Shown piece by piece: positions 8,206 to 24,984 of a stretch of DNA of 30,871 nucleotides; position 1 is the first letter of the stretch, and each line of letters begins with the position of its first letter. This DNA comes from Candidatus Hermodarchaeota archaeon (GTDB lineage: Archaea; Asgardarchaeota; Hermodarchaeia; Hermodarchaeales; Hermodarchaeaceae). Below the pieces are notes generated by a model that was given only the letters and a program-made list of their open reading frames with translations, did no database searches and was not told the DNA's origin. The DNA lies in NCBI GenBank assembly GCA_016839805.1, contig JAEOTO010000037.1, positions 1 through 30,871 on the forward strand, in the 5' to 3' direction. Position numbers and translations under genes: made by a program.

Positions 8206-8880
8206 GTGGCTATGATGGTCCAACCCTATTCTGATAGGTGTGCAGCTGGGAAGATTCTAGCCCAAAAAATTTGTGCGCTAAACCTCCAAGAAACCGTACT
8301 TGTATTGGCAATTCCAAATGGAGGCCTCGCAGTAGCGGTACCCATCGCGGAGACTTTAACTGCTGACCTAGACTTGCTGATAGTACGAAAATTACAAATC
8401 CCATATAATCCCGAAGCGGGATTCGGGGCAATCAGCTCTCTGGGCACTGTGATTCTGAATGAACCACTTGTCGCTCATCTAGGATTAAGTCAGTCTCAAA
8501 TTCAATCAGTCATCCAACGAACCAAAACGCAAATCGAAACTCGTCAAACCGCTTATGCAGGATTGGTTGGTCAACAAAGCCCCGATGGCCGGATTGTGAT
8601 TTTAGTGGATGATGGCTTAGCTTCCGGATATACGATGCTGGCAGCTATCCAATCAGTGCGGGCTCGAGGTCCCCAGAAAATTATTGTTGCAGTTCCAACC
8701 GGTTCTGCTACTGCCGTGTCACGGGTTCGCGACCAAGTTGATATGCTAATTTGTCCGCATGTCGGATCAGCTTACGTGTTTGCTGTAGCGGATGCTTATC
8801 AGAACTGGTATGATATACCAGAAGATGAGGTCATTGCACTCCTACGTCAATTCCATGAAAAAAATTGTGAAACTGACTAG
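8206..8880 (+). CDS. Phosphoribosyltransferase family protein
   Basis: DRCAAGKILA, VLAIPNGG, VRKLQIPYNPEAGFGAI, and PRPP-binding loop VILVDDGLASGYTM. Confidence 0.9.
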   Translation: MAMMVQPYSDRCAAGKILAQKICALNLQETVLVLAIPNGGLAVAVPIAETLTADLDLLIVRKLQIPYNPEAGFGAISSLGTVILNEPLVAHLGLSQSQIQSVIQRTKTQIETRQTAYAGLVGQQSPDGRIVILVDDGLASGYTMLAAIQSVRARGPQKIIVAVPTGSATAVSRVRDQVDMLICPHVGSAYVFAVADAYQNWYDIPEDEVIALLRQFHEKNCETD

Positions 8881-9323
8881 TAGGTAACTTTGATTTCCAT
8901 GTCGTGACCGGTTATATCGGGTCGACCTTTGACTGCAATAACACCTTTCAACATCCATGTTGTCCGTGCATTTTGACTTTGATATGTGGGTGGAATTCCT
9001 GGTGGTAAATGAACGTTGAAAGGAATATCTTGAGCAAATCCATCTGTAAATTGCATTTGTCCCTGAACTGAGTGTTTTCCTTCGTGGAGAATCTTATTTT
9101 GCTGCGCACTCACAGTGATAGTCTGTTCTCCTTGTTTTTTCTGTTCAGTAGCCTGGACCCACTCTGTTACCCAGATCTCAAGACGTATTTCTTCTGCATC
9201 AAATTCCTCAGATGATGAGACGTTCATTGTCCCTGTGAGCCCTTGTCTGAGGCTTTGATATTCATTATCAAATCGTACAGTAACCGTACCTTTGGGAGTT
9301 TTTAATCGATCAAGAAAGCCCAT
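8877..9323 (-). CDS. Single-domain arrestin-N/Spo0M-like beta-sandwich protein
   Basis: MGFLDRL start, LTGTMNV, IRLEIWVTE, and IPFNVHLPPGIPPTYQSQNARTTWMLKGVI, resembling the arrestin-fold FxFxLPxxLPxS/T...YxxK pattern. Confidence 0.7.
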   Translation of the reverse strand: MGFLDRLKTPKGTVTVRFDNEYQSLRQGLTGTMNVSSSEEFDAEEIRLEIWVTEWVQATEQKKQGEQTITVSAQQNKILHEGKHSVQGQMQFTDGFAQDIPFNVHLPPGIPPTYQSQNARTTWMLKGVIAVKGRPDITGHDMEIKVTY

Positions 9324-9486
9324 GCTTCATCAAACCTCTTATTGGAATTAGGCAAAGCCTAAGAACACCTCTCGAAAATCGAAATAAAAGTCTGCTCCTA
9401 ACTATTGAAGAGCTCTACTCTAATTGCGATTACATAGTTATGCATTCCATTTCCAAATTCATTGGGTCGCAAGAGAAGCATTGATT

Positions 9487-10389
9487 TTATTTAGCAAATT
9501 GAGCTAAAATTTCTTCAGATAATTTTTCTGAAGGCTCGTCAAGAGGAACAAGTTTGATATCCTTTAACGAACGAGCCCCGAGTCCTAGCTCAATTGCCCG
9601 GGCAAGTTGAGCTTGTTTGAATATTGAGCCTGCTTCCACTTCTTGTGTGGTCCCATAATGTCGGAGGACGGCAACGCCCACGGCATCTAGCGCAACACGG
9701 TCAGTTGCTGCAAGAACTACATTCGGACTCACCTTCTCACCGACTGCAGGACCGCCATGGACAAAGGCGTCGACACCGTCCATGAGGATGAGTTGTGGTT
9801 CATAGGCGGTATTGATTTCTGCTATCATTTCTCGTTGATGGGGAGAACCATGTAGCTCATTCATGAAATCATATCCATCTTGTGGATTATACCTCGCCAC
9901 CATACCCACGGAATTTTTGAGAGATAAAGTGAAGTGACCGCCAAATTTGTGTGTTTTCAAACAGCAGGTTTGCACTACAACATCTGCGTCCATAAAGAGT
10001 CGTGCCATAAGGAAACCTCGGTCCCAATGAGACCCATCGACATCACAATGAACCCATTCAGCAATATGCAGGTCATTGAGCACTTGAACCTTGAATTTAA
10101 GTTTCTTCGCGAAATCTATGACACTACTTTGTGTCAAGACCTGCTCGGTTTCTCCCATACCACTACGTTCTCCCATGATAATCTCTGATGGTCCAGCTTT
10201 TTGCAATCCACTTACTAATTGTTTTAATGTATCCGAATGAGTTTGCGCAGGAAAGGGGTCCGCGCTGTTATAATTTGCTTTTAATGCTATCTGCTTTCCT
10301 TTGAATTGCTTTAATTTGAACTGCTCAAGTAACTGATCGATTGCCTTGGTCCGGTTAGTACCATTCGCAAGGAAAATTTCTGATGCCAT
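9487..10389 (-). CDS. DUF362 domain-containing protein
   Basis: IALKAN, GERSG, CCLKTH, FTLSLKNSVG, LILMDG and ATDRVALD motifs. Confidence 0.9.
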   Translation of the reverse strand: MASEIFLANGTNRTKAIDQLLEQFKLKQFKGKQIALKANYNSADPFPAQTHSDTLKQLVSGLQKAGPSEIIMGERSGMGETEQVLTQSSVIDFAKKLKFKVQVLNDLHIAEWVHCDVDGSHWDRGFLMARLFMDADVVVQTCCLKTHKFGGHFTLSLKNSVGMVARYNPQDGYDFMNELHGSPHQREMIAEINTAYEPQLILMDGVDAFVHGGPAVGEKVSPNVVLAATDRVALDAVGVAVLRHYGTTQEVEAGSIFKQAQLARAIELGLGARSLKDIKLVPLDEPSEKLSEEILAQFAK

Positions 10390-10499
10390 TCATTACCACC
10401 TTCCGTGATTTACCTCGACATTTCCCACACTTTCCTCTTCAAACAATTAGAAAAGACTTGTGATATCACGTAAGTTCGTACCTGAAGCCTGTTTAATCA

Positions 10500-11480: not shown

Positions 11481-14396
11481 TTGGAATATGAACCACGGCG
11501 AACTATAAGAATTAACGGGCCTCGACGAAAACTTCTGGCTGGAATCGTTATCATTGTTATTATCGTGGTAGTCATTGCCATTGGTGTATTCGGCATTCAG
11601 AACATGTTCTTGGACTGGAAAATGTTAGATGTCATGTATACAAACAAGGCTGGTGTTTCATGGTGGAGTACCTTTACACTCAATGGGCTGCTATTCTTTA
11701 TTGGAATACCACTGGCTTTCATCATTGCTTTTGCGGGATTACCCTATGAGTCAAAAGTCTTGAATCTAGTTTGGATGAGTGGGCGTGTTGGGAATCGACG
11801 CTATCCGAGCCGCTACCTCGTTGCTGGATACAAAGTCGCGCTTTTCATCGGGTCTTATGTTGTATTAACATTCATTTTCCTCGAGAACATGCGGTTTCTT
11901 GCCCTCTTGTTTCAATCCTCGGCATCAGGAGTGGGGAGCTGGGGGCAAATTCGCGATGCCCTATTATTAATCTTTAATCCAATGGTTCCTTCGAACGTGG
12001 TTGCTGATCTTATTGCCACCATCGAAGTCCAATACACTATTTTCCTCATTTTCATGTCTTTGTTACTACTCGTCATTGGTGTTCGAGTAGCATTAGACCT
12101 TATCCATTACTTTGCCCGAGTCGGTCCTTCAACTGAATATCCTGAAGTCAGAGTCCTCGCATCAGTATCCTTTCTTGTTGTCCTTGGATTACTCTGGTTC
12201 CTACTTACCGTCCCTTACATGCGTATAGATGTAGGAACTCAATTCTATGTACTTCAACTCCTCATCTTATTCATCTTCTTTAGTACCCTTTGTGTCATCT
12301 CCTTTGGACTCACTGTTATCGGACGATATGGGCGTGCTGGACAAGTTCCACGAATGAACCGGAAGGTCATTTCAATTATTGGCATAATTACTGCCATCCT
12401 AATCATCGCCCCAGCGCTCTTTACTGGCTACCTTGTCGCTGGACCCATACAAGGGCAGATGTGGGAGCCTTGGCATTGGGATCCCCTAGTGACTAAAGAA
12501 ATTGAATTCACCAATTGGGCCGGAGGTCCCCAGATCAGTGTGGTTCCCTATCAATCACTTGTTAATGACTCGGGTGTATCCGATGGTCAAGTGTTAGGAC
12601 ATGCCCGGCTCTGGGACTTTACAGCGAGTTCGAATAAAATGCGTAGTCAGACCATCGCAAACTGGATGGCGCTAGCTGATAGTGACATCGTCTATGTGGG
12701 AGGACGTGAGTATTGGATGGCCCCTTATTCGCTAGCACCTCCTAGCCGTGATGATTTCCATAAGGAGTATATCCTCTACACACATGCAGAAGGAGCCACA
12801 GTACTTGATGCCAATAGTGCAACAGGAGAATTTCTTACTCCAGCGCAATTTCAGAGTATCTTCGGTGTTAATGCAAACTTCCCAATCTATTATGGCGAAT
12901 CACCGCCAGGAGGCTTCTATGATGGGTATGAAGGATTCGTCTTGGTCGATACCGCTATTGCACCTGAAACAGGGACCTACAGTTGGGACGGAGAACCAGA
13001 CTACATCCTCACCGGAGCTGAACTAGCACTTAAGAAAATCATTTGGTCCATCGATGATCTAAGCTTCACTTGGCTCTCATTTAGCGAACCCGTCGCGAAG
13101 GTCCTTATGCATCGAAACATCCAAGACCGTGTCCAAGCGATTCTGCTGCCTTACATGTATACCGATCATGATCCGTATCTCGTCTTTGACCGAGTCAATC
13201 GCGAAGCCTATTACTGTGTACCAATCTTTAGCGGATATCCTCTTGCTTTACAATATGCCCAGTCATCATACCTTCGACTGCTAGGATTTGCTATCGTCAA
13301 TTGTGCGGATGGTGAAATCACCTGGGTGCGGAATCCGAACGCCAATCCCGCGCAATTCTTCATCGAATCTCTCTACGAGGACTGGTATCCTTGGATTGAC
13401 CCCGAGCCGTGGCTTTTGGACCAACTTCGCTATCCCGAAGATCTTATTGATGCTCAACTTGACGTGGACTTTTATTATCACGTAACGAATCCTTGGGTTT
13501 GGCGAAGTTATGCGGACTTCTTTGAAAAGCCCCACAGCCAACCTGATGTCCATTACGTCCTTTATCCCTACAATGGCAGTTTACACTGGGTCGGGTATCA
13601 AGCTGCCCGTTATATCCGGCACGAAGCAATGAAGATGGCAGGGTTTTATCTATTCAAAAATGGACCCGAAGTTGGCACCGGGGTCTTTGCACGAGCTGGG
13701 ACCATAGACCCAGATACCCAAACACCCCTAAGCCCGGTCTTCGGTGTTGATGCAGCTGTAGAAAGCTTCGAACAACAAGCCCGATCTGATCTTGTCCTCA
13801 TCCAACCCTACCGCATCGGTAACCGTCTACTCATGCCACTCAGCGGACGTCTCGTCTACCTCTTCCCCGTCTATGCAGAACAACCAGGTGAATCACTCGT
13901 CGAAACACTCACATTTGTCGGCATGGTAGATGCTGAAGACATCAACCAAGTCGCTTACGCGCCAACCGCCGCAGAAGCATATGCTCAGTTCTTCTTTGGA
14001 TACAACCAAACTGTTACTGGTGTAGATTTCATTGAAACAGGGTTGAACCCCTTCGATATTGATGTCGGTGAGTTTGCAGAAATAAGCTACCTACTTAAGA
14101 ACGGTAACGCTACTGCCAGTGATGTCACTATCCAACTCGCAAGCCAAACTCCAAACTTCGATATCTTCTACCACAGTTCAAATGTGACACCAATCTTTGA
14201 AAATGGATTCTACCTATACAACATCAGCCAGCTCCTCATGTATCCTCAGGATGTAAGCGGAGGTACTATTACCCTTCTTGCCAAGGATCTTCCACCTGGA
14301 ATACTTCTCGTGACCTATATCATCGAACTCCGAATCCTCGTCAACGACGTCCACACCCAAACTGAATACTTCTACCTCACTGTACGATCCGCCTAA
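11481..14396 (+). CDS. UPF0182 family membrane protein
   Basis: Multi-TM N-terminal third, then KEIEFT, ARLWD, ILYTH, RNIQDRV...DHDPYLV, QLRYPEDL and RIGNRLLMP motifs. TTG start with AAGGTG upstream. Confidence 0.85.
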   Translation: MEYEPRRTIRINGPRRKLLAGIVIIVIIVVVIAIGVFGIQNMFLDWKMLDVMYTNKAGVSWWSTFTLNGLLFFIGIPLAFIIAFAGLPYESKVLNLVWMSGRVGNRRYPSRYLVAGYKVALFIGSYVVLTFIFLENMRFLALLFQSSASGVGSWGQIRDALLLIFNPMVPSNVVADLIATIEVQYTIFLIFMSLLLLVIGVRVALDLIHYFARVGPSTEYPEVRVLASVSFLVVLGLLWFLLTVPYMRIDVGTQFYVLQLLILFIFFSTLCVISFGLTVIGRYGRAGQVPRMNRKVISIIGIITAILIIAPALFTGYLVAGPIQGQMWEPWHWDPLVTKEIEFTNWAGGPQISVVPYQSLVNDSGVSDGQVLGHARLWDFTASSNKMRSQTIANWMALADSDIVYVGGREYWMAPYSLAPPSRDDFHKEYILYTHAEGATVLDANSATGEFLTPAQFQSIFGVNANFPIYYGESPPGGFYDGYEGFVLVDTAIAPETGTYSWDGEPDYILTGAELALKKIIWSIDDLSFTWLSFSEPVAKVLMHRNIQDRVQAILLPYMYTDHDPYLVFDRVNREAYYCVPIFSGYPLALQYAQSSYLRLLGFAIVNCADGEITWVRNPNANPAQFFIESLYEDWYPWIDPEPWLLDQLRYPEDLIDAQLDVDFYYHVTNPWVWRSYADFFEKPHSQPDVHYVLYPYNGSLHWVGYQAARYIRHEAMKMAGFYLFKNGPEVGTGVFARAGTIDPDTQTPLSPVFGVDAAVESFEQQARSDLVLIQPYRIGNRLLMPLSGRLVYLFPVYAEQPGESLVETLTFVGMVDAEDINQVAYAPTAAEAYAQFFFGYNQTVTGVDFIETGLNPFDIDVGEFAEISYLLKNGNATASDVTIQLASQTPNFDIFYHSSNVTPIFENGFYLYNISQLLMYPQDVSGGTITLLAKDLPPGILLVTYIIELRILVNDVHTQTEYFYLTVRSA

Positions 14397-14516: not shown

Positions 14517-15359
14517 ATGACATCAATCCCTCTGGATGATGCTGGTCTCAAATTAGAGTTACTAGCGGAACGACGACGACCTGAACCCCAACTCTTGAAA
14601 GGATTCTCAGTCTATTATCTCACAAAAAATACCATTGCCAGCCTATTATTAAAAAAAGATTCGTCATTAATCCAGCTCCGGCAAGGATTATTTGCAAAAA
14701 CTCGTACCAAAAATTCAACAACACCAGTATCATTTGTAACTATTTCTGGAGTGTTGCCACTCGTTCCGCGGCGAAACACAACTAAACTTCATGAAATAGA
14801 ACAACAAGAGCCAAAACGGATGCGTCGACGGTTTGTGCTCATCATCCATACTCCATTTAAAACAGAACTACAACGCAAACATTTCTCCAGATCCATCGAA
14901 CGGACACCAATTATTAAAATACGTCCAGGACTGCTCCTAGCTCCGCAAATCTCAAGCTCACACTATCGAACATATGAACAAATCCTCCGACGACCAAGTA
15001 AATTCATCGCCAAGCTCACTGAATTGGGGTCACCAGTTTGGTATGTGCCTCGAGTTGAGCTCTTTCACCCCAGGGCTTCTGAGATAATAGTCAATCTCGT
15101 TCAAGGAACTTTTAAACAACGTGTTCGTCGTATTATACGCACATGCGTTAAACTTTACAGAGAGTTGAAGGAACTCTCTGAGATGAAGAAACCCCTTATT
15201 CATTACCAGAACAGACTAACTGGGATTAAAAAGCGTCTTCGGTATCTTCGATGGCAATCGCGGTTTTTCAAGCGTGAATTCGGAATCGAGCTGCATACCA
15301 TCGTGAATAAGGCAATATCCGCATTTAACCGTGTTCACAAGCAATTGAAAATAACGTGA
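14517..15359 (+). CDS. Very basic hypothetical protein, possibly with a PaaX/ChrB-N-like ferredoxin-fold domain and a C-terminal helical region
   Basis: 280-aa R/K-rich ORF. RFVLIIHTPF...QRKHFSRSIERTPIIKIRPGLLLAP resembles PaaX-middle/ChrB-N patterns by eye only. Confidence 0.65.
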   Translation: MTSIPLDDAGLKLELLAERRRPEPQLLKGFSVYYLTKNTIASLLLKKDSSLIQLRQGLFAKTRTKNSTTPVSFVTISGVLPLVPRRNTTKLHEIEQQEPKRMRRRFVLIIHTPFKTELQRKHFSRSIERTPIIKIRPGLLLAPQISSSHYRTYEQILRRPSKFIAKLTELGSPVWYVPRVELFHPRASEIIVNLVQGTFKQRVRRIIRTCVKLYRELKELSEMKKPLIHYQNRLTGIKKRLRYLRWQSRFFKREFGIELHTIVNKAISAFNRVHKQLKIT

Positions 15360-15567
15360 CGTTTAATAACGTCGAAATTAGGCGTTATTTCAACGAAAAT
15401 AACTCAGTTTAGCCTTTTTTTTCACAAGAAATGTGTATCTCTGCCGATTCTAATGAAAGGGGCTATATTTTGTTGTTAATAGGCATTTAGAGCCAAATTT
15501 TGGATATTTTTTTAATGAATAATTTTGAATTGGAACTTGTTCCTGGGCTAGTTTAACGGTGATTTCT

Positions 15568-15642
15568 ATGGCGAAGAAAAAGTCAGGAAAGAAGACTAAG
15601 AGCAAATCAAAGACCAGTAAAGAGAAGAAAAGCAAGAAGTAG
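15568..15642 (+). CDS. 24-aa Lys/Ser-rich basic microprotein MAKKKSGKKTKSKSKTSKEKKSKK
   Basis: Manual translation. SD GGTGAT just upstream of ATG 15568, AT-rich upstream region, 13 Lys encoded with mixed AAA/AAG codons. Confidence 0.65.
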   Translation: MAKKKSGKKTKSKSKTSKEKKSKK

Positions 15643-15783
15643 CATTTGCTGATCATTACGATGTCTCTCCTTCATCAGCCTCTATATCTTAGATCCAGAA
15701 GAGTTCACAAGTTAGCTGGATGGAGTATAGATTGGTTTTAGGTACGTTGAATATTCACCCAGTAGATTAGGAGTTGAAAAGGT

Positions 15784-15867
15784 TTGATTGACTACAGACA
15801 ACCACCTGAAGACGAAGACGAAGAAGAAGAATGGGAAGAAGATTCTGGGGACGAGGATGACTGGTAA
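15784..15867 (+). CDS. 27-aa acidic microprotein MIDYRQPPEDEDEEEEWEEDSGDEDDW
   Basis: Manual translation. TTG start with GGAGTTGA (SD-like) 6 nt upstream, 16 D/E residues, and a T-rich tract downstream. Confidence 0.6.
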   Translation: MIDYRQPPEDEDEEEEWEEDSGDEDDW

Positions 15868-15897
15868 TCGCCTTCTCGTTCTTCTATTTTTTTGAAA

Positions 15898-16377
15898 TTA
15901 TTCAGCACCTAGCCAATCTGGTGCAAAAAATAATCCACCCGGAGCTGTTTTTTCATGTGGATATTGTGAGCTGAATTTTGATTGGCTATCTAAGACCTTC
16001 AGAAACTGGTCTAAAGTGCGTTCATTCAACCGAATTGTTACAGCTTTATTTTTGAGCTCATATCGAGAGTCATCTGCGACGTCTTGTTCCATCCGAATCA
16101 CTAGCCAAATTAACCACTCTAACTGGGCCTTGTGCTCCTGCGCATATCGCACTACATCAATATCCTCAGGCGGGTTACACAGAAATTTTCGTGTACTCTT
16201 CCCATAGGTCTTGAAATCAGCTCGCATAGATTCCAACGCTTCATACATGGTTTTCAACGCGGACTCGGATCCCATTACTAACACTTCAGGTTGCCACTCG
16301 TCCTTAGGCTCATAGCGGATCCGCCATATGAAAAACTCTAGATCTGTAAACACCTTTTGTGGCGAAGGAGTTGACAC
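15898..16377 (-). CDS. Hypothetical protein (159 aa)
   Basis: ORF with GTG start and GGAGGA SD upstream; globular composition; no family recognised. Confidence 0.75.
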   Translation of the reverse strand: MSTPSPQKVFTDLEFFIWRIRYEPKDEWQPEVLVMGSESALKTMYEALESMRADFKTYGKSTRKFLCNPPEDIDVVRYAQEHKAQLEWLIWLVIRMEQDVADDSRYELKNKAVTIRLNERTLDQFLKVLDSQSKFSSQYPHEKTAPGGLFFAPDWLGAE

Positions 16378-21774: not shown

Positions 21775-22497
21775 ATGGAATTACGCAGCACAGGAATTAG
21801 TGGATTAGATGAACTTCTCCGAGGAGGAGTACCTGCTGATGGTCTCACTCTCCTTATCGGCGATGCAGGAACTGGTAAAAGTCTGCTAGCCCGTCAATTT
21901 CTCTGGGAAGGCATCCACCAGGAAGAAAACAGCATCTCCATTCTCACCGAAACTCATCGTGAAGCCATGACCCGCTCCCTCCAAGACTTTGGCTGGGACA
22001 TCACTGCATATGCTGGCAAAAACCTCCGCATCATCGAAGGGTTCACCCTCTCTTATCCTGATTTCCTTTCAAAGATCGAAGATGCAGATCGTGAATTCAC
22101 TCTTGAAGCCCTAAACTTAGATAAACTGATCCATCTCCTCACGACGGCAGCAATCCAACTTGGTGAAAAAGGGCGGTGTATCTTCGATAGTCTCAGTGAT
22201 CTTTTCATCCTCTTGGGTACTGACCGTAAAGTGTTACGTTTTCTCCGCCGCGTCAAAGTTTTCCTCGCTGGGGAAGATTACAGCACGATTATGACCCTGG
22301 ACCCTCACACTCAAGGCACCATCGCAACCAACGCCGCAATGCATATCGCTGATGGTATCATTGAAATCCGTCTCCGAGAAGGTCCTGAAAACATCGGTCT
22401 ACAACGCGAAATCCGTGTTCGAGCCATGCCTCAAGGGCATGATAGTACTTGGCATCCTCTGAAGATTACTCCCAAGGGTCTTGTCGTTGAAGTTTAA
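21775..22497 (+). CDS. Single-domain KaiC/RAD55-like RecA-superfamily ATPase
   Basis: STGISGLDELLRGGVP, Walker A GDAGTGKS, Walker B IFDSLS, HIADGIIE and GLVV C-terminus. Confidence 0.9.
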   Translation: MELRSTGISGLDELLRGGVPADGLTLLIGDAGTGKSLLARQFLWEGIHQEENSISILTETHREAMTRSLQDFGWDITAYAGKNLRIIEGFTLSYPDFLSKIEDADREFTLEALNLDKLIHLLTTAAIQLGEKGRCIFDSLSDLFILLGTDRKVLRFLRRVKVFLAGEDYSTIMTLDPHTQGTIATNAAMHIADGIIEIRLREGPENIGLQREIRVRAMPQGHDSTWHPLKITPKGLVVEV

Positions 22498-22661: not shown

Positions 22662-23901
22662 TTTTCTTTCAATCGAATATCTCAAATATGTCTATGAATA
22701 AATGTTTGTTGTATAGTATTTGTATGCATTAGATAAAAATCGTTAAACCACTGTTTAAAATTATAGACAAATGACGAAATAAAATCGCCTTTATACGTAT
22801 TTTCCTTTCATCGAAAAACTTAACAAAAAAGATATTAATTCAATAATGGATTATATTAAAAAATGGGTGCAAAAAATAGGAATTGATGTTAGAAAATAAG
22901 AAATCTTTGTAAACTTTGATTGGATTAGAATTCCAATGTGAAAATAACGGTGGTATTGGGAAGCCTAATCACCACCCGCTAATCGGGCTAAAGCGACTTT
23001 GATTTCATGCCGTACAATTAACTCGGGTTCGTTTTCTAATTGGTTTTTGAGGGCCAGTTCCGCACGCATTTCGCCCAGTTCACCTAACGCTTTGGCAGCA
23101 GCCTGGCGGACGTAAAGATCAGAATCTTGAAGGCGATCTATGAGGGGATCCACCGCTTTCCAATCTCCCATTGATGCTAAAGCAATGATGGCTTCTTTTC
23201 GAACGTATAGGTTCTCGTCCGCGAGCATATTACAAAGGGGCTCGACGCCATCCCGGTCTCCGATTTCCCCTAAGATATTGACGATGGCTCGTCGGACTTC
23301 AGGATCTTCGTGGTTGAGGTCATTAATGAGTCCTTCGACCAGGTGTTGGTCTCGTAATTGTTCAAGGGCCCAGATGACGGCTTTGCGAACCTTTTTGTTT
23401 GGATCGGCTAGAGCTTCGACAAGTGCACTAACGCTGTCTTGATTTCCTAAGTGACCAAGCGCTCGGGCTGCCTGTTCGCGTTTGAGGGCATTTTCGCTGG
23501 TTCGGAGTGTTCGGATGAGTTCATCTGCCTTGACTATCTCTGTCATGTGGGTTCACGGTTTGTTATGATTATACGTGCGGGGAGATTGTGACTTGACATT
23601 GGAAATGGAACCTCTTAAAGGCTAAGAATTTCTCGGTTTTACTCTTACAATGGACAGTAGGAAAATGTGTTGTTTGGTTGATTTGTTGAAATATTGAAAT
23701 AATAACATTTACTCTATACTATTTGTATTTTAGTTAAAATAAGTGGTTTCTTATTTGTTTTCCTTATAACGAATATCTCAAACATATTTTAGAATAAATG
23801 ATTAGTAAAAAGTCTCTACTTAGTTTAGTTCAATTATTTGATGTAATGATTAATACTTCATTATAATTAATGGAATTCAATCTCATTTTCCTCTCATCGA
23901 A
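22662..23901 (+). repeat. Four copies of a degenerate 16-bp motif in two AT-rich intergenic regions flanking the HEAT gene
   Basis: TTTTCTTTCAATCGAA (22662), TTTTCCTTTCATCGAA (22800), TTTTCCTTATAACGAA (23758), TTTTCCTCTCATCGAA (23886). Copies 1 and 3 continue into an identical CGAATATCTCAAA-N9-GAATAAATG. Confidence 0.7.
22965..23546 (-). CDS. HEAT-repeat (PBS lyase-like) protein
   Basis: Tandem repeats of the type L.D....VR..A..ALG.LG...AV..L. Confidence 0.92.
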   Translation of the reverse strand: MTEIVKADELIRTLRTSENALKREQAARALGHLGNQDSVSALVEALADPNKKVRKAVIWALEQLRDQHLVEGLINDLNHEDPEVRRAIVNILGEIGDRDGVEPLCNMLADENLYVRKEAIIALASMGDWKAVDPLIDRLQDSDLYVRQAAAKALGELGEMRAELALKNQLENEPELIVRHEIKVALARLAGGD

Positions 23902-24036: not shown

Positions 24037-24984
24037 TCAAAAGACTTCCTCGGGTTCGGTTTCGGCCAACGGATGAGTGCGTTGAAAAACAGCTCGTTCG
24101 TGGGCTAACGACACATGGGTGTAAATCTGTGTAGTAGCTAAATTCGCGTGTCCTAGAAGTTCCTGTAAAACTCGAACATCTGCACCTCGCTCAAGCATGT
24201 GGGTTGCAAAGGAGTGGCGTAAAGCATGCGGTGTAACCTTTGAGGTGATGCCTGCGCGTTTTGCGACTGACCGCACAGTCCGCTGCACCGTTAGCGGTGA
24301 TAAGCGTTTATTTCTGCGGCTAAGAAATAGAGGACCTTCAGCTGGTCGGAATTTAATATATTCGACAATTGCATTCATAGCTGGAACAGTTAATAGTACC
24401 ATTCGCTCCTTGTTCCCCTTGCCAAGGACTCGGATCGTCCCCTCGGAAAAGTCGATGTTTTCAATGTTCATGGAGCAAAGTTCAGAGACGCGAGCACCTG
24501 TGCTATACAAGACTTGAAATATTGCATAAGTGCGTTCAGGATTTTTTTCATATTTCCGAGCAGCCCAAAGGAGGCGTTTTACATCCTCTGGTGAGACTGA
24601 CCGGGGTAGATGTTGTCCGAGACGTGGAGTAACAAGTCCCGTAGTGGGATTGTCGGTAATCATTTTCTCTTGGTCAAGAAAGCGAAAGAATGAGCGCAAA
24701 CAAGCCAATTTTCTGCGCAGTGAGGCACTGCTATAGCCCTTATCGGTTTTTAGATGTGCAAGAAACATCCGTATATGGTGAGTTTGCACTTGCTGGGGTG
24801 GTATACCGACAAAGGTGAAAAACATCTCAAGATCGTAGCGGTACACCCGGGAGGTTTGTGGGCTGCCTCCTCGTTCAATAGAGATAAATTCCGTAAAGCG
24901 ATCAATCGCTTCGTTAACAAGCATGTTAATGGGATTTGGAGGGGACTCGATAGCCAATCCTTCAAAATTCATAAAGAGCATCAC
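24037..24984 (-). CDS. xerA: XerC/XerD-family (archaeal XerA) site-specific tyrosine recombinase; the true start may be further downstream (MLVNEA)
   Basis: SAM-like N-domain (RKLACLRSFFRFL) and a complete catalytic set: STGARVSEL, GKGNKER, HALRHSFATH, LLGH, TTQIYTHV. Confidence 0.92.
   Translation of the reverse strand: MMLFMNFEGLAIESPPNPINMLVNEAIDRFTEFISIERGGSPQTSRVYRYDLEMFFTFVGIPPQQVQTHHIRMFLAHLKTDKGYSSASLRRKLACLRSFFRFLDQEKMITDNPTTGLVTPRLGQHLPRSVSPEDVKRLLWAARKYEKNPERTYAIFQVLYSTGARVSELCSMNIENIDFSEGTIRVLGKGNKERMVLLTVPAMNAIVEYIKFRPAEGPLFLSRRNKRLSPLTVQRTVRSVAKRAGITSKVTPHALRHSFATHMLERGADVRVLQELLGHANLATTQIYTHVSLAHERAVFQRTHPLAETEPEEVF

Follow-up and report, generated by a model that had tools for sequence, protein, structure and literature searches.

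Two very short open reading frames (ORFs) of opposite charge, which follow each other on the forward strand at positions 15568 to 15867 of a contig from a Candidatus Hermodarchaeota archaeon, raise the question of whether such frames are genes and, if they are, whether they act as a pair. The sequence-only reading of the window (i.e., the complete analysed stretch of 30,871 nucleotides) had taken them for a standalone pair, in which a minimal DNA- or RNA-condensing peptide is accompanied by its acidic chaperone or antidote. ORF1 (15568-15642, +; ATG start, TAG stop) encodes a Lys-rich microprotein of 24 aa with 13 Lys, seven Ser/Thr and one Glu (net +12), and its ATG, frame and stop position are conserved. 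The Shine-Dalgarno-like GGTGA in front of it (15558-15562, +) is matched by a GTGA at the same spacing in ten of eleven genus members, and about 45 nt 5′ of ORF1 columns of the genus alignment reveal a conserved AT-rich motif (15521-15536, +), a candidate promoter or operator. ORF2 (15784-15867, +) starts with TTG, or with ATG in most relatives, and encodes an acidic microprotein of 27 aa (net -15) with 16 Asp/Glu, one Arg and two Trp, the second of which is the C-terminal residue; its frame and the terminal Asp-Trp-stop are kept. Its Shine-Dalgarno-like GGAGTTGA (15770-15777, +) is represented in the genus by AGGTGA or GAGTTGA at the same place. The last codons of ORF2 and its 3′ UTR form a hairpin, which together with the T7 tract behind it (15887-15893; complete element 15847-15893, +) probably serves as a terminator towards the convergent gene at 15898-16377. 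This hairpin (-13 to -24 kcal/mol in most genus members) is confined to the genus of the window and was absent from the distant lineages in the comparison of acidic genes. Exact counts thus confirmed the co-orientation, both charges, both Shine-Dalgarno-like motifs and the T-tract which the sequence-only reading had described. The convergent gene (15898-16377, -) encodes a 159-aa orphan without Pfam or NCBIfam match and is kept as the convergent neighbour in much of the genus; several relatives have a DUF362 gene in front of it. Further genes of the window encode an Arrestin-N-like small protein (8877-9323), a KaiC-type ATPase (21775-22497), a HEAT-repeat protein (22965-23546) and a Xer-type integrase (24037-24984).

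A chance origin of the two frames can be dismissed, as neither ORF type arose in any of 3000 Markov copies of the intergenic sequence and as both types are rare genome-wide, with only four acidic-type and three Lys-type micro-ORFs passing the filter used here in the entire 2.31-Mb genome. When relatives were searched at the DNA level, the locus was present throughout the genus and in the sister genus. In the genus alignment the starts, stops and ribosome-binding sites of both ORFs line up, every indel within them is a multiple of three, and third codon positions vary roughly twice as often as the other two. The pN/pS ratios are 0.26 for the Lys ORF (11 sequences) and 0.32 for the acidic ORF (14 sequences). 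The conserved frames and ribosome-binding sites and the preference for synonymous changes, which had been named earlier as the signs to look for in relatives, were hence all found, and judged by this conservation both micro-ORFs are real, selected genes. Gene callers overlook most such ORFs, which are for example uncalled in three loci of the comparison (L093, L094, L096). A read-through of the ORF1 stop codon with pyrrolysine was considered and rejected, because the stop codon of relatives is TAA or TGA. On contig C22 of the same genome (G000; 264781-264858, -) ARAGORN reports a tRNA with the anticodon CUA (Pyl), which may be a mis-folded intron-containing tRNA. Likewise, the Lys ORF is not a frame shadow of the acidic ORF, as real Lys ORFs do not overlap acidic ones; shadow frames of this kind do occur (L043) and were filtered out.

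With both genes established, the idea of a standalone pair holds only in part, as the sequence-only reading missed a third member, the 280-aa orphan ORF upstream (14517-15359, +; in the following termed anchor). The two micro-genes and this anchor form a three-gene module and not a free-standing pair: in every relative of the locus from the genus and the sister genus the micro-genes follow the anchor gene. Homologues of the anchor were identified by a profile search in 87 of 400 genomes of the phylum, mostly as single copies. Within the Asgard archaea they occur in lineages with the NCBI protein labels Thorarchaeota, Atabeyarchaeum, Borrarchaeum and Asgardarchaeum, whereas no homologue turned up in the largest of the Asgard families searched (0/135 in family f9). 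They were also present in 26 of 301 sampled Bathyarchaeia. Micro-ORFs within 1.3 kb of an anchor gene were counted in 112 loci, which are kin and not independent, and an acidic micro-ORF was found in 99 of these (own family 18/20, Thorarchaeota family 50/51, other Asgard archaea 9/12, Bathyarchaeia 22/29). Few anchor loci therefore lack it, and both cases from the own family lie at contig ends. A Lys-rich micro-ORF flanks about 57 of the 112 anchor loci (own family 16/20, Thorarchaeota family 24/51, other Asgard archaea 6/12, Bathyarchaeia 11/29). Judged by this genome, only 0.006 acidic and 0.004 Lys-type ORFs would be expected per such window. The proposed co-occurrence of the two micro-ORFs was borne out insofar as they are adjacent and co-oriented, mostly less than 180 nt apart, in nearly all loci that contain both, but such loci amount to only 53 of 112.

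The order of the three genes differs between lineages. It is anchor-Lys-acidic in the window and anchor-acidic-Lys in other lineages; in Thorarchaeota an acidic-Lys pair is divergent from the anchor, and eight of ten further Thermoproteota loci exhibit acidic-Lys-anchor as one operon. No fourth gene common to more than two lineages was found in the fetched flanks. The 971-aa UPF0182-like membrane protein encoded directly upstream of the anchor (11481-14396, +) is conserved in the family. Furthermore, all three genes have been duplicated together, and two micro-ORFs of each type in the genome belong to the two module copies, one in the window and one on contig C29. The C29 copy of this genome (G000; 9038-10474, corresponding to L090:2039-3475) is complete, with an anchor of about 33% identity, a 24-aa Lys ORF and a 37-aa acidic ORF, and a stretch similar to the AT-rich motif at 15521-15536 is found there as well. 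The duplicate is also present in two other genomes (G006 and G007), and the gene that follows it presumably encodes a PolX-type protein, going by its start. A second, broken anchor copy with several stops (L149; G410:C11:170667-171407) is followed by intact acidic and Lys micro-ORFs. Taken together, comparative sequence data show three genuine genes that are under selection and whose linkage spans two phyla.

The anchor itself is a strongly basic protein (net +37, pI 11.2), and basicity is a property of its whole family (median pI 10.4, net +28), in which most of the well-conserved positions are Arg or Lys and only one column is acidic. Its AlphaFold (AF2) model (pLDDT 90) consists of two Cas2/ferredoxin-like alpha/beta domains, whose relation as an internal repeat is weak by profile, and a C-terminal three-helix bundle. 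Nine of 91 anchor homologues have a Pfam match to PaaX_M (E 5.5e-8) and four of 91 to ChrB_N. The best Foldseek match of the anchor is PaaX (E 2.6e-3, weak). Its nearest named Atlas clusters are ChrB-N proteins, again as weak matches (TM 0.45-0.57; 0.56-0.57 by target over about 160 residues), and VIA-align searches yielded only generic three-helix bundles. A Cas2-like domain followed by a helical bundle, with a conserved Arg pair in the first helix, is what the anchor appears to share with ChrB-N (PF20229) and the central Cas2-like domain of PaaX (PF20803). In contrast to these regulators it has two Cas2-like domains, and neither the C-terminal sensor of ChrB (ChrB_C) nor the winged helix of PaaX (PaaX_N) is present, as both lack a Pfam or NCBIfam match in the anchor and the model leaves no room for them; its putative ligand would be encoded as a separate peptide. 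By its model and secondary structure the anchor thus shares a domain type with ChrB-N and PaaX, but not their architecture. ChrB binds DNA via R18 and R23 in its N-terminus (PMC3817168), to which the conserved R120 and R125 of the anchor correspond in spacing, as a positional analogy and not as an alignment. These fold relatives and the conserved Arg and Lys residues suggest that the anchor is a nucleic-acid-binding protein.

Among the acidic microproteins Asp and Glu are freely exchanged between lineages, and the C-terminal Trp is kept in most members (others end in Phe or in runs of Asp or Glu). As this Trp is retained together with all three stop codons, the constraint acts on the protein. 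The idea that the Trp is a by-product of an RNA hairpin was rejected for the same reason and because it is also kept where no hairpin is formed. None of 26 members has a Pfam match, and an Atlas search with the acidic paralogue yielded only unnamed clusters of 30-32 aa, below 0.8. Seven Thorarchaeota loci (L050, L054, L056, L061, L063, L064 and L066) harbour an additional acidic micro-ORF with terminal Trp at the 3′ end of the anchor gene, and three loci (L045, L046 and L055) contain two in tandem.

A possible origin of the acidic peptide is indicated by some Bathyarchaeia with operon-type loci, in which the acidic run forms the tail of a LysW-fold zinc ribbon. The best sequence and fold match of these relatives is LysW/ArgW (PF21344, NF041070; PDB 3vpb, 5k2m), with which they share the zinc ribbon and an acidic, aromatic-ended tail; they differ from it in falling below the family cut-offs, in lacking the terminal Gly-Glu and in having no lysine or arginine pathway genes nearby. 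The zinc ribbon with its two CxxC motifs is limited to some of these Bathyarchaeial relatives and absent from the Asgard acidic peptide of the window. The C-terminal EDWGE of LysW with its free Glu was never found in the acidic family, and lysX, lysZ and lysY were no recurring neighbours within the fetched flanks. It is therefore highly improbable that the two peptides are substrates or carriers of an amide ligation, in which Lys amines and Glu carboxyls would be joined by a LysW/RimK-type chemistry, or that they serve as an amino-acid store. Such a role would fit with the LysW fold of the relatives, with the specific use of Lys and with two RimK-family genes on other contigs of the genome, but the required C-terminal Glu is replaced by Trp or Phe, no ligase is found among the recurring neighbours and hardly any acidic residue of the anchor is conserved. 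The A motif of Arp2/3 activators resembles the terminal Asp-Asp-Trp of the acidic peptide, which could accordingly be a free WASP/WAVE-type motif acting on the actin system. This reading is the least probable of all and can practically be set aside: the WH2 and central segments, which precede the acidic-Trp motif in the VCA region of WASP/WAVE, are missing from a peptide that consists only of a short leader and an acidic run and has no Pfam match. In addition, there are no cytoskeletal neighbours, and the family is widespread in Bathyarchaeia, while the anchor was absent from the largest Asgard families searched.

The acidic family is broader than the anchor, as such an ORF lies directly before the ABCE1 gene in 18 of 30 Bathyarchaeia loci (16 of them co-oriented). 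In these loci (L216-L245) the Glu/Trp micro-ORF mostly occurs without an anchor or Lys gene; anchor, acidic ORF and ABCE1 are consecutive in two loci (L216 and L097). Since the anchor is present in only 26 of 301 Bathyarchaeia, it cannot be the only partner of the acidic family. This arrangement, together with one locus among ribosomal-protein genes, could point to a module of translation, with the acidic peptide binding ABCE1 or another ribosome factor, the Lys peptide being associated with the ribosome and the anchor binding rRNA or mRNA. A precedent is the archaeal stalk protein aP1, whose tail is likewise an acidic run with a hydrophobic end and which binds NBD1 of ABCE1 through its C-terminal hydrophobic residues (PMC6125642). 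The acidic microprotein differs from this tail in being a free peptide and in ending with Trp, the Leu-x-x-Leu-Phe pattern being absent from the peptide of the window, and none of 30 Asgard ABCE1 loci, including that of this genome, has an acidic ORF directly before it. Small ribosomal peptides such as eL41 contain much Arg. The Lys peptide is, by contrast, nearly free of Arg, its profile matched no PDB chain, and a separate Arg/Lys-rich eL41-like micro-ORF lies some 650 nt 3′ of the acidic gene in one genome (G011; L003:2509-2631, +). A role in translation hence appears rather unlikely, although it deserves to be kept in mind.

The Lys microproteins, whose homologues occur in Thorarchaeota, other Asgard archaea and Bathyarchaeia, contain 50-52% Lys and 0-1% Arg in all four groups. 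Among basic peptides selected by a filter neutral towards Lys and Arg the Lys:Arg ratio is 709:21, compared to about 1:1 in the proteome; a single transition would turn a Lys codon into an Arg codon, yet Arg is nearly absent. The remainder of the peptide is made up of Ala, Pro, Thr and Ser, with no hydrophobic residues, and 18 members yielded no Pfam match at E<=1. The resemblance to a modifiable histone tail, as claimed by the sequence-only reading, is retained for this H1-tail-like composition but not for the richness in Ser and Thr, which is specific to the lineage (22% here vs 4% in Bathyarchaeia), so that the argument rests on Lys only. The median net charge in Bathyarchaeia is only +5. 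Two sister genomes have lost the ribosome-binding site, the start and the first half of the Lys gene with the acidic gene being intact. The deletion of the 5′ half is shared by both (L023 and L030; G008 and G001), and the 3′ remnant and the spacer are kept. A pattern search yielded no relocated Lys gene in these two genomes among the candidates examined, which were part of the list. As the Lys gene is also missing beside the anchor in about half of all loci, the Lys peptide is dispensable. It is in turn rarely found without an acidic neighbour. In some Lys peptides an acidic-Trp tail forms the C-terminus, and at one locus a Lys-rich and an acidic, Trp-studded half are fused in a single chain (L102:3372-3509, -; related cases in L096, L099, L101 and L149), an indication that both peptides can function within a single unit.

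The specific selection of Lys codons could also mean that the Lys ORF is a leader peptide which senses lysine and whose translation controls the next gene. This would fit with its position, as it immediately precedes the anchor gene in the operons of Bathyarchaeia and the acidic gene in the window, and also with the LysW-like nature of its partner and with a weakly predicted long stem-loop behind it (15677-15737, +) in the spacer of 131-146 nt between the micro-genes. Single-sequence folds place this genus-specific stem at the same position in most genus members despite differing sequences, with a median z of -1.9 over 19 family loci and of -1.0 in the window. Consensus folds were, however, not significant, covariation was not established, and Rfam gave no match. 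Moreover, the Lys ORF is the last gene in Thorarchaeota, where a convergent gene lies opposite it in 11 of 21 loci, downstream genes vary, and there are no neighbours from the lysine pathway. A function as leader is thus quite improbable.

The original proposal of a Lys peptide that condenses DNA or RNA and an acidic peptide that serves as its chaperone or antidote, with the anchor being secondary, was modelled on histone H1 and prothymosin-alpha. It draws on the opposite and nearly matched charges (+12/-15), on the adjacent, co-oriented genes in nearly all 53 loci with both, on the rare occurrence of the Lys gene without an acidic neighbour and on the genome encoding histones. The likeness is that of two low-complexity chains of opposite charge, of which the basic one is rich in Lys and free of Arg and hydrophobic residues, with Ala/Pro/Thr/Ser spacers as in H1 tails. 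Yet peptides of 24 and 27 aa bear only about one quarter of the charges of the human H1/prothymosin-alpha pair (+53/-44; PMC7661507). Neither the globular winged-helix domain of H1 (PF00538) was found in any of the 18 Lys members searched nor prothymosin-alpha (PF03247; ~110 aa, net ~-44) in the 26 acidic ones. The module further differs by a conserved Trp in the acidic partner, which a pure polyelectrolyte chaperone would not need, by the clustering of a third basic gene and by a dispensable basic gene. The acidic gene is tied more closely to the anchor than to the Lys gene (99 vs 53 of 112 loci), and it is also retained where the Lys gene is missing: in about half of the loci, in the two deletion genomes, for which no relocated copy was seen among the part of the candidates examined, and before ABCE1. 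These observations argue against a peptide that is merely the antidote of the basic one. As the proposal also shows no linkage to histone genes and leaves the linkage to the anchor across two phyla unexplained, it is considered unlikely.

The asymmetry between an acidic gene that nearly always accompanies the anchor and an optional Lys gene, and the definition of the acidic side by charge and Trp and of the basic side by Lys, favour the following reading, which we hold tentatively and at somewhat less than an even chance: the acidic peptide would mimic nucleic acid for the basic anchor, and the Lys peptide would act as a competing polycation that a locus may or may not contain. The three genes would form an electrostatic partner switch, of which all binding steps and the direction of control are what we infer. 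The anchor would bind nucleic acid, and the acidic microprotein, probably the stripped-down tail of a LysW-fold protein, would be its dedicated ligand, i.e., a disordered mimic whose charge masks the basic surface and whose Trp residues hold it in place. The Lys microprotein might shift the balance by sequestering the acidic peptide or by binding to nucleic acid on its own. The use of Lys and not of Arg may reflect tuning via the Lys side chain, for example by acetylation or methylation, or fast exchange as in H1 tails. This mechanism is supported by the persistence of the trio in varying order and orientation and by its joint duplication on contig C29. Against it stand the occurrence of the acidic family away from the anchor, the few anchor loci that lack an acidic ORF, the Lys peptides of Bathyarchaeia, which with a median of +5 are too weak to titrate much, and the weak fold matches of the anchor (E 2.6e-3; TM ~0.5), which carry no function. 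A comparable principle is known from DSS1/Sem1, which mimics DNA on basic surfaces that bind nucleic acids (PMC7641332) and is, like the acidic peptide, small, acidic, Trp-studded and disordered. The acidic peptide has less than half of its length and no C-terminal helix, partners of the PCI or BRCA2 type are not linked, and the DSS1/Sem1 profile (PF05160) did not match the acidic peptides, short low-complexity queries having little power in such a search.

The proposed mechanism therefore borrows known principles, and the novelty lies in the make-up of the module, as no tested known family fits either peptide; a literature search found no description of it. A more far-reaching and doubtful extension would be an old regulatory or chromatin system of Asgard archaea and Bathyarchaeia that works by pure polyelectrolyte competition, in which a Trp-anchored polyanion shuttles between a Cas2-like basic protein and a Lys-switchable, H1-tail-like poly-Lys peptide, and which would in principle foreshadow, in prokaryotes, the chaperoning of the H1/prothymosin and DSS1 type. 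The micro-ORFs, overlooked by gene callers, have been kept across two archaeal phyla, one of which is the lineage closest to eukaryotes. If the peptides act by charge competition on a nucleic-acid-binding protein, the module would be the smallest natural system of this kind. It would then also offer a fully synthesisable test, with three components, of acidic disordered chaperones and Lys-rich tails before eukaryotic chromatin.
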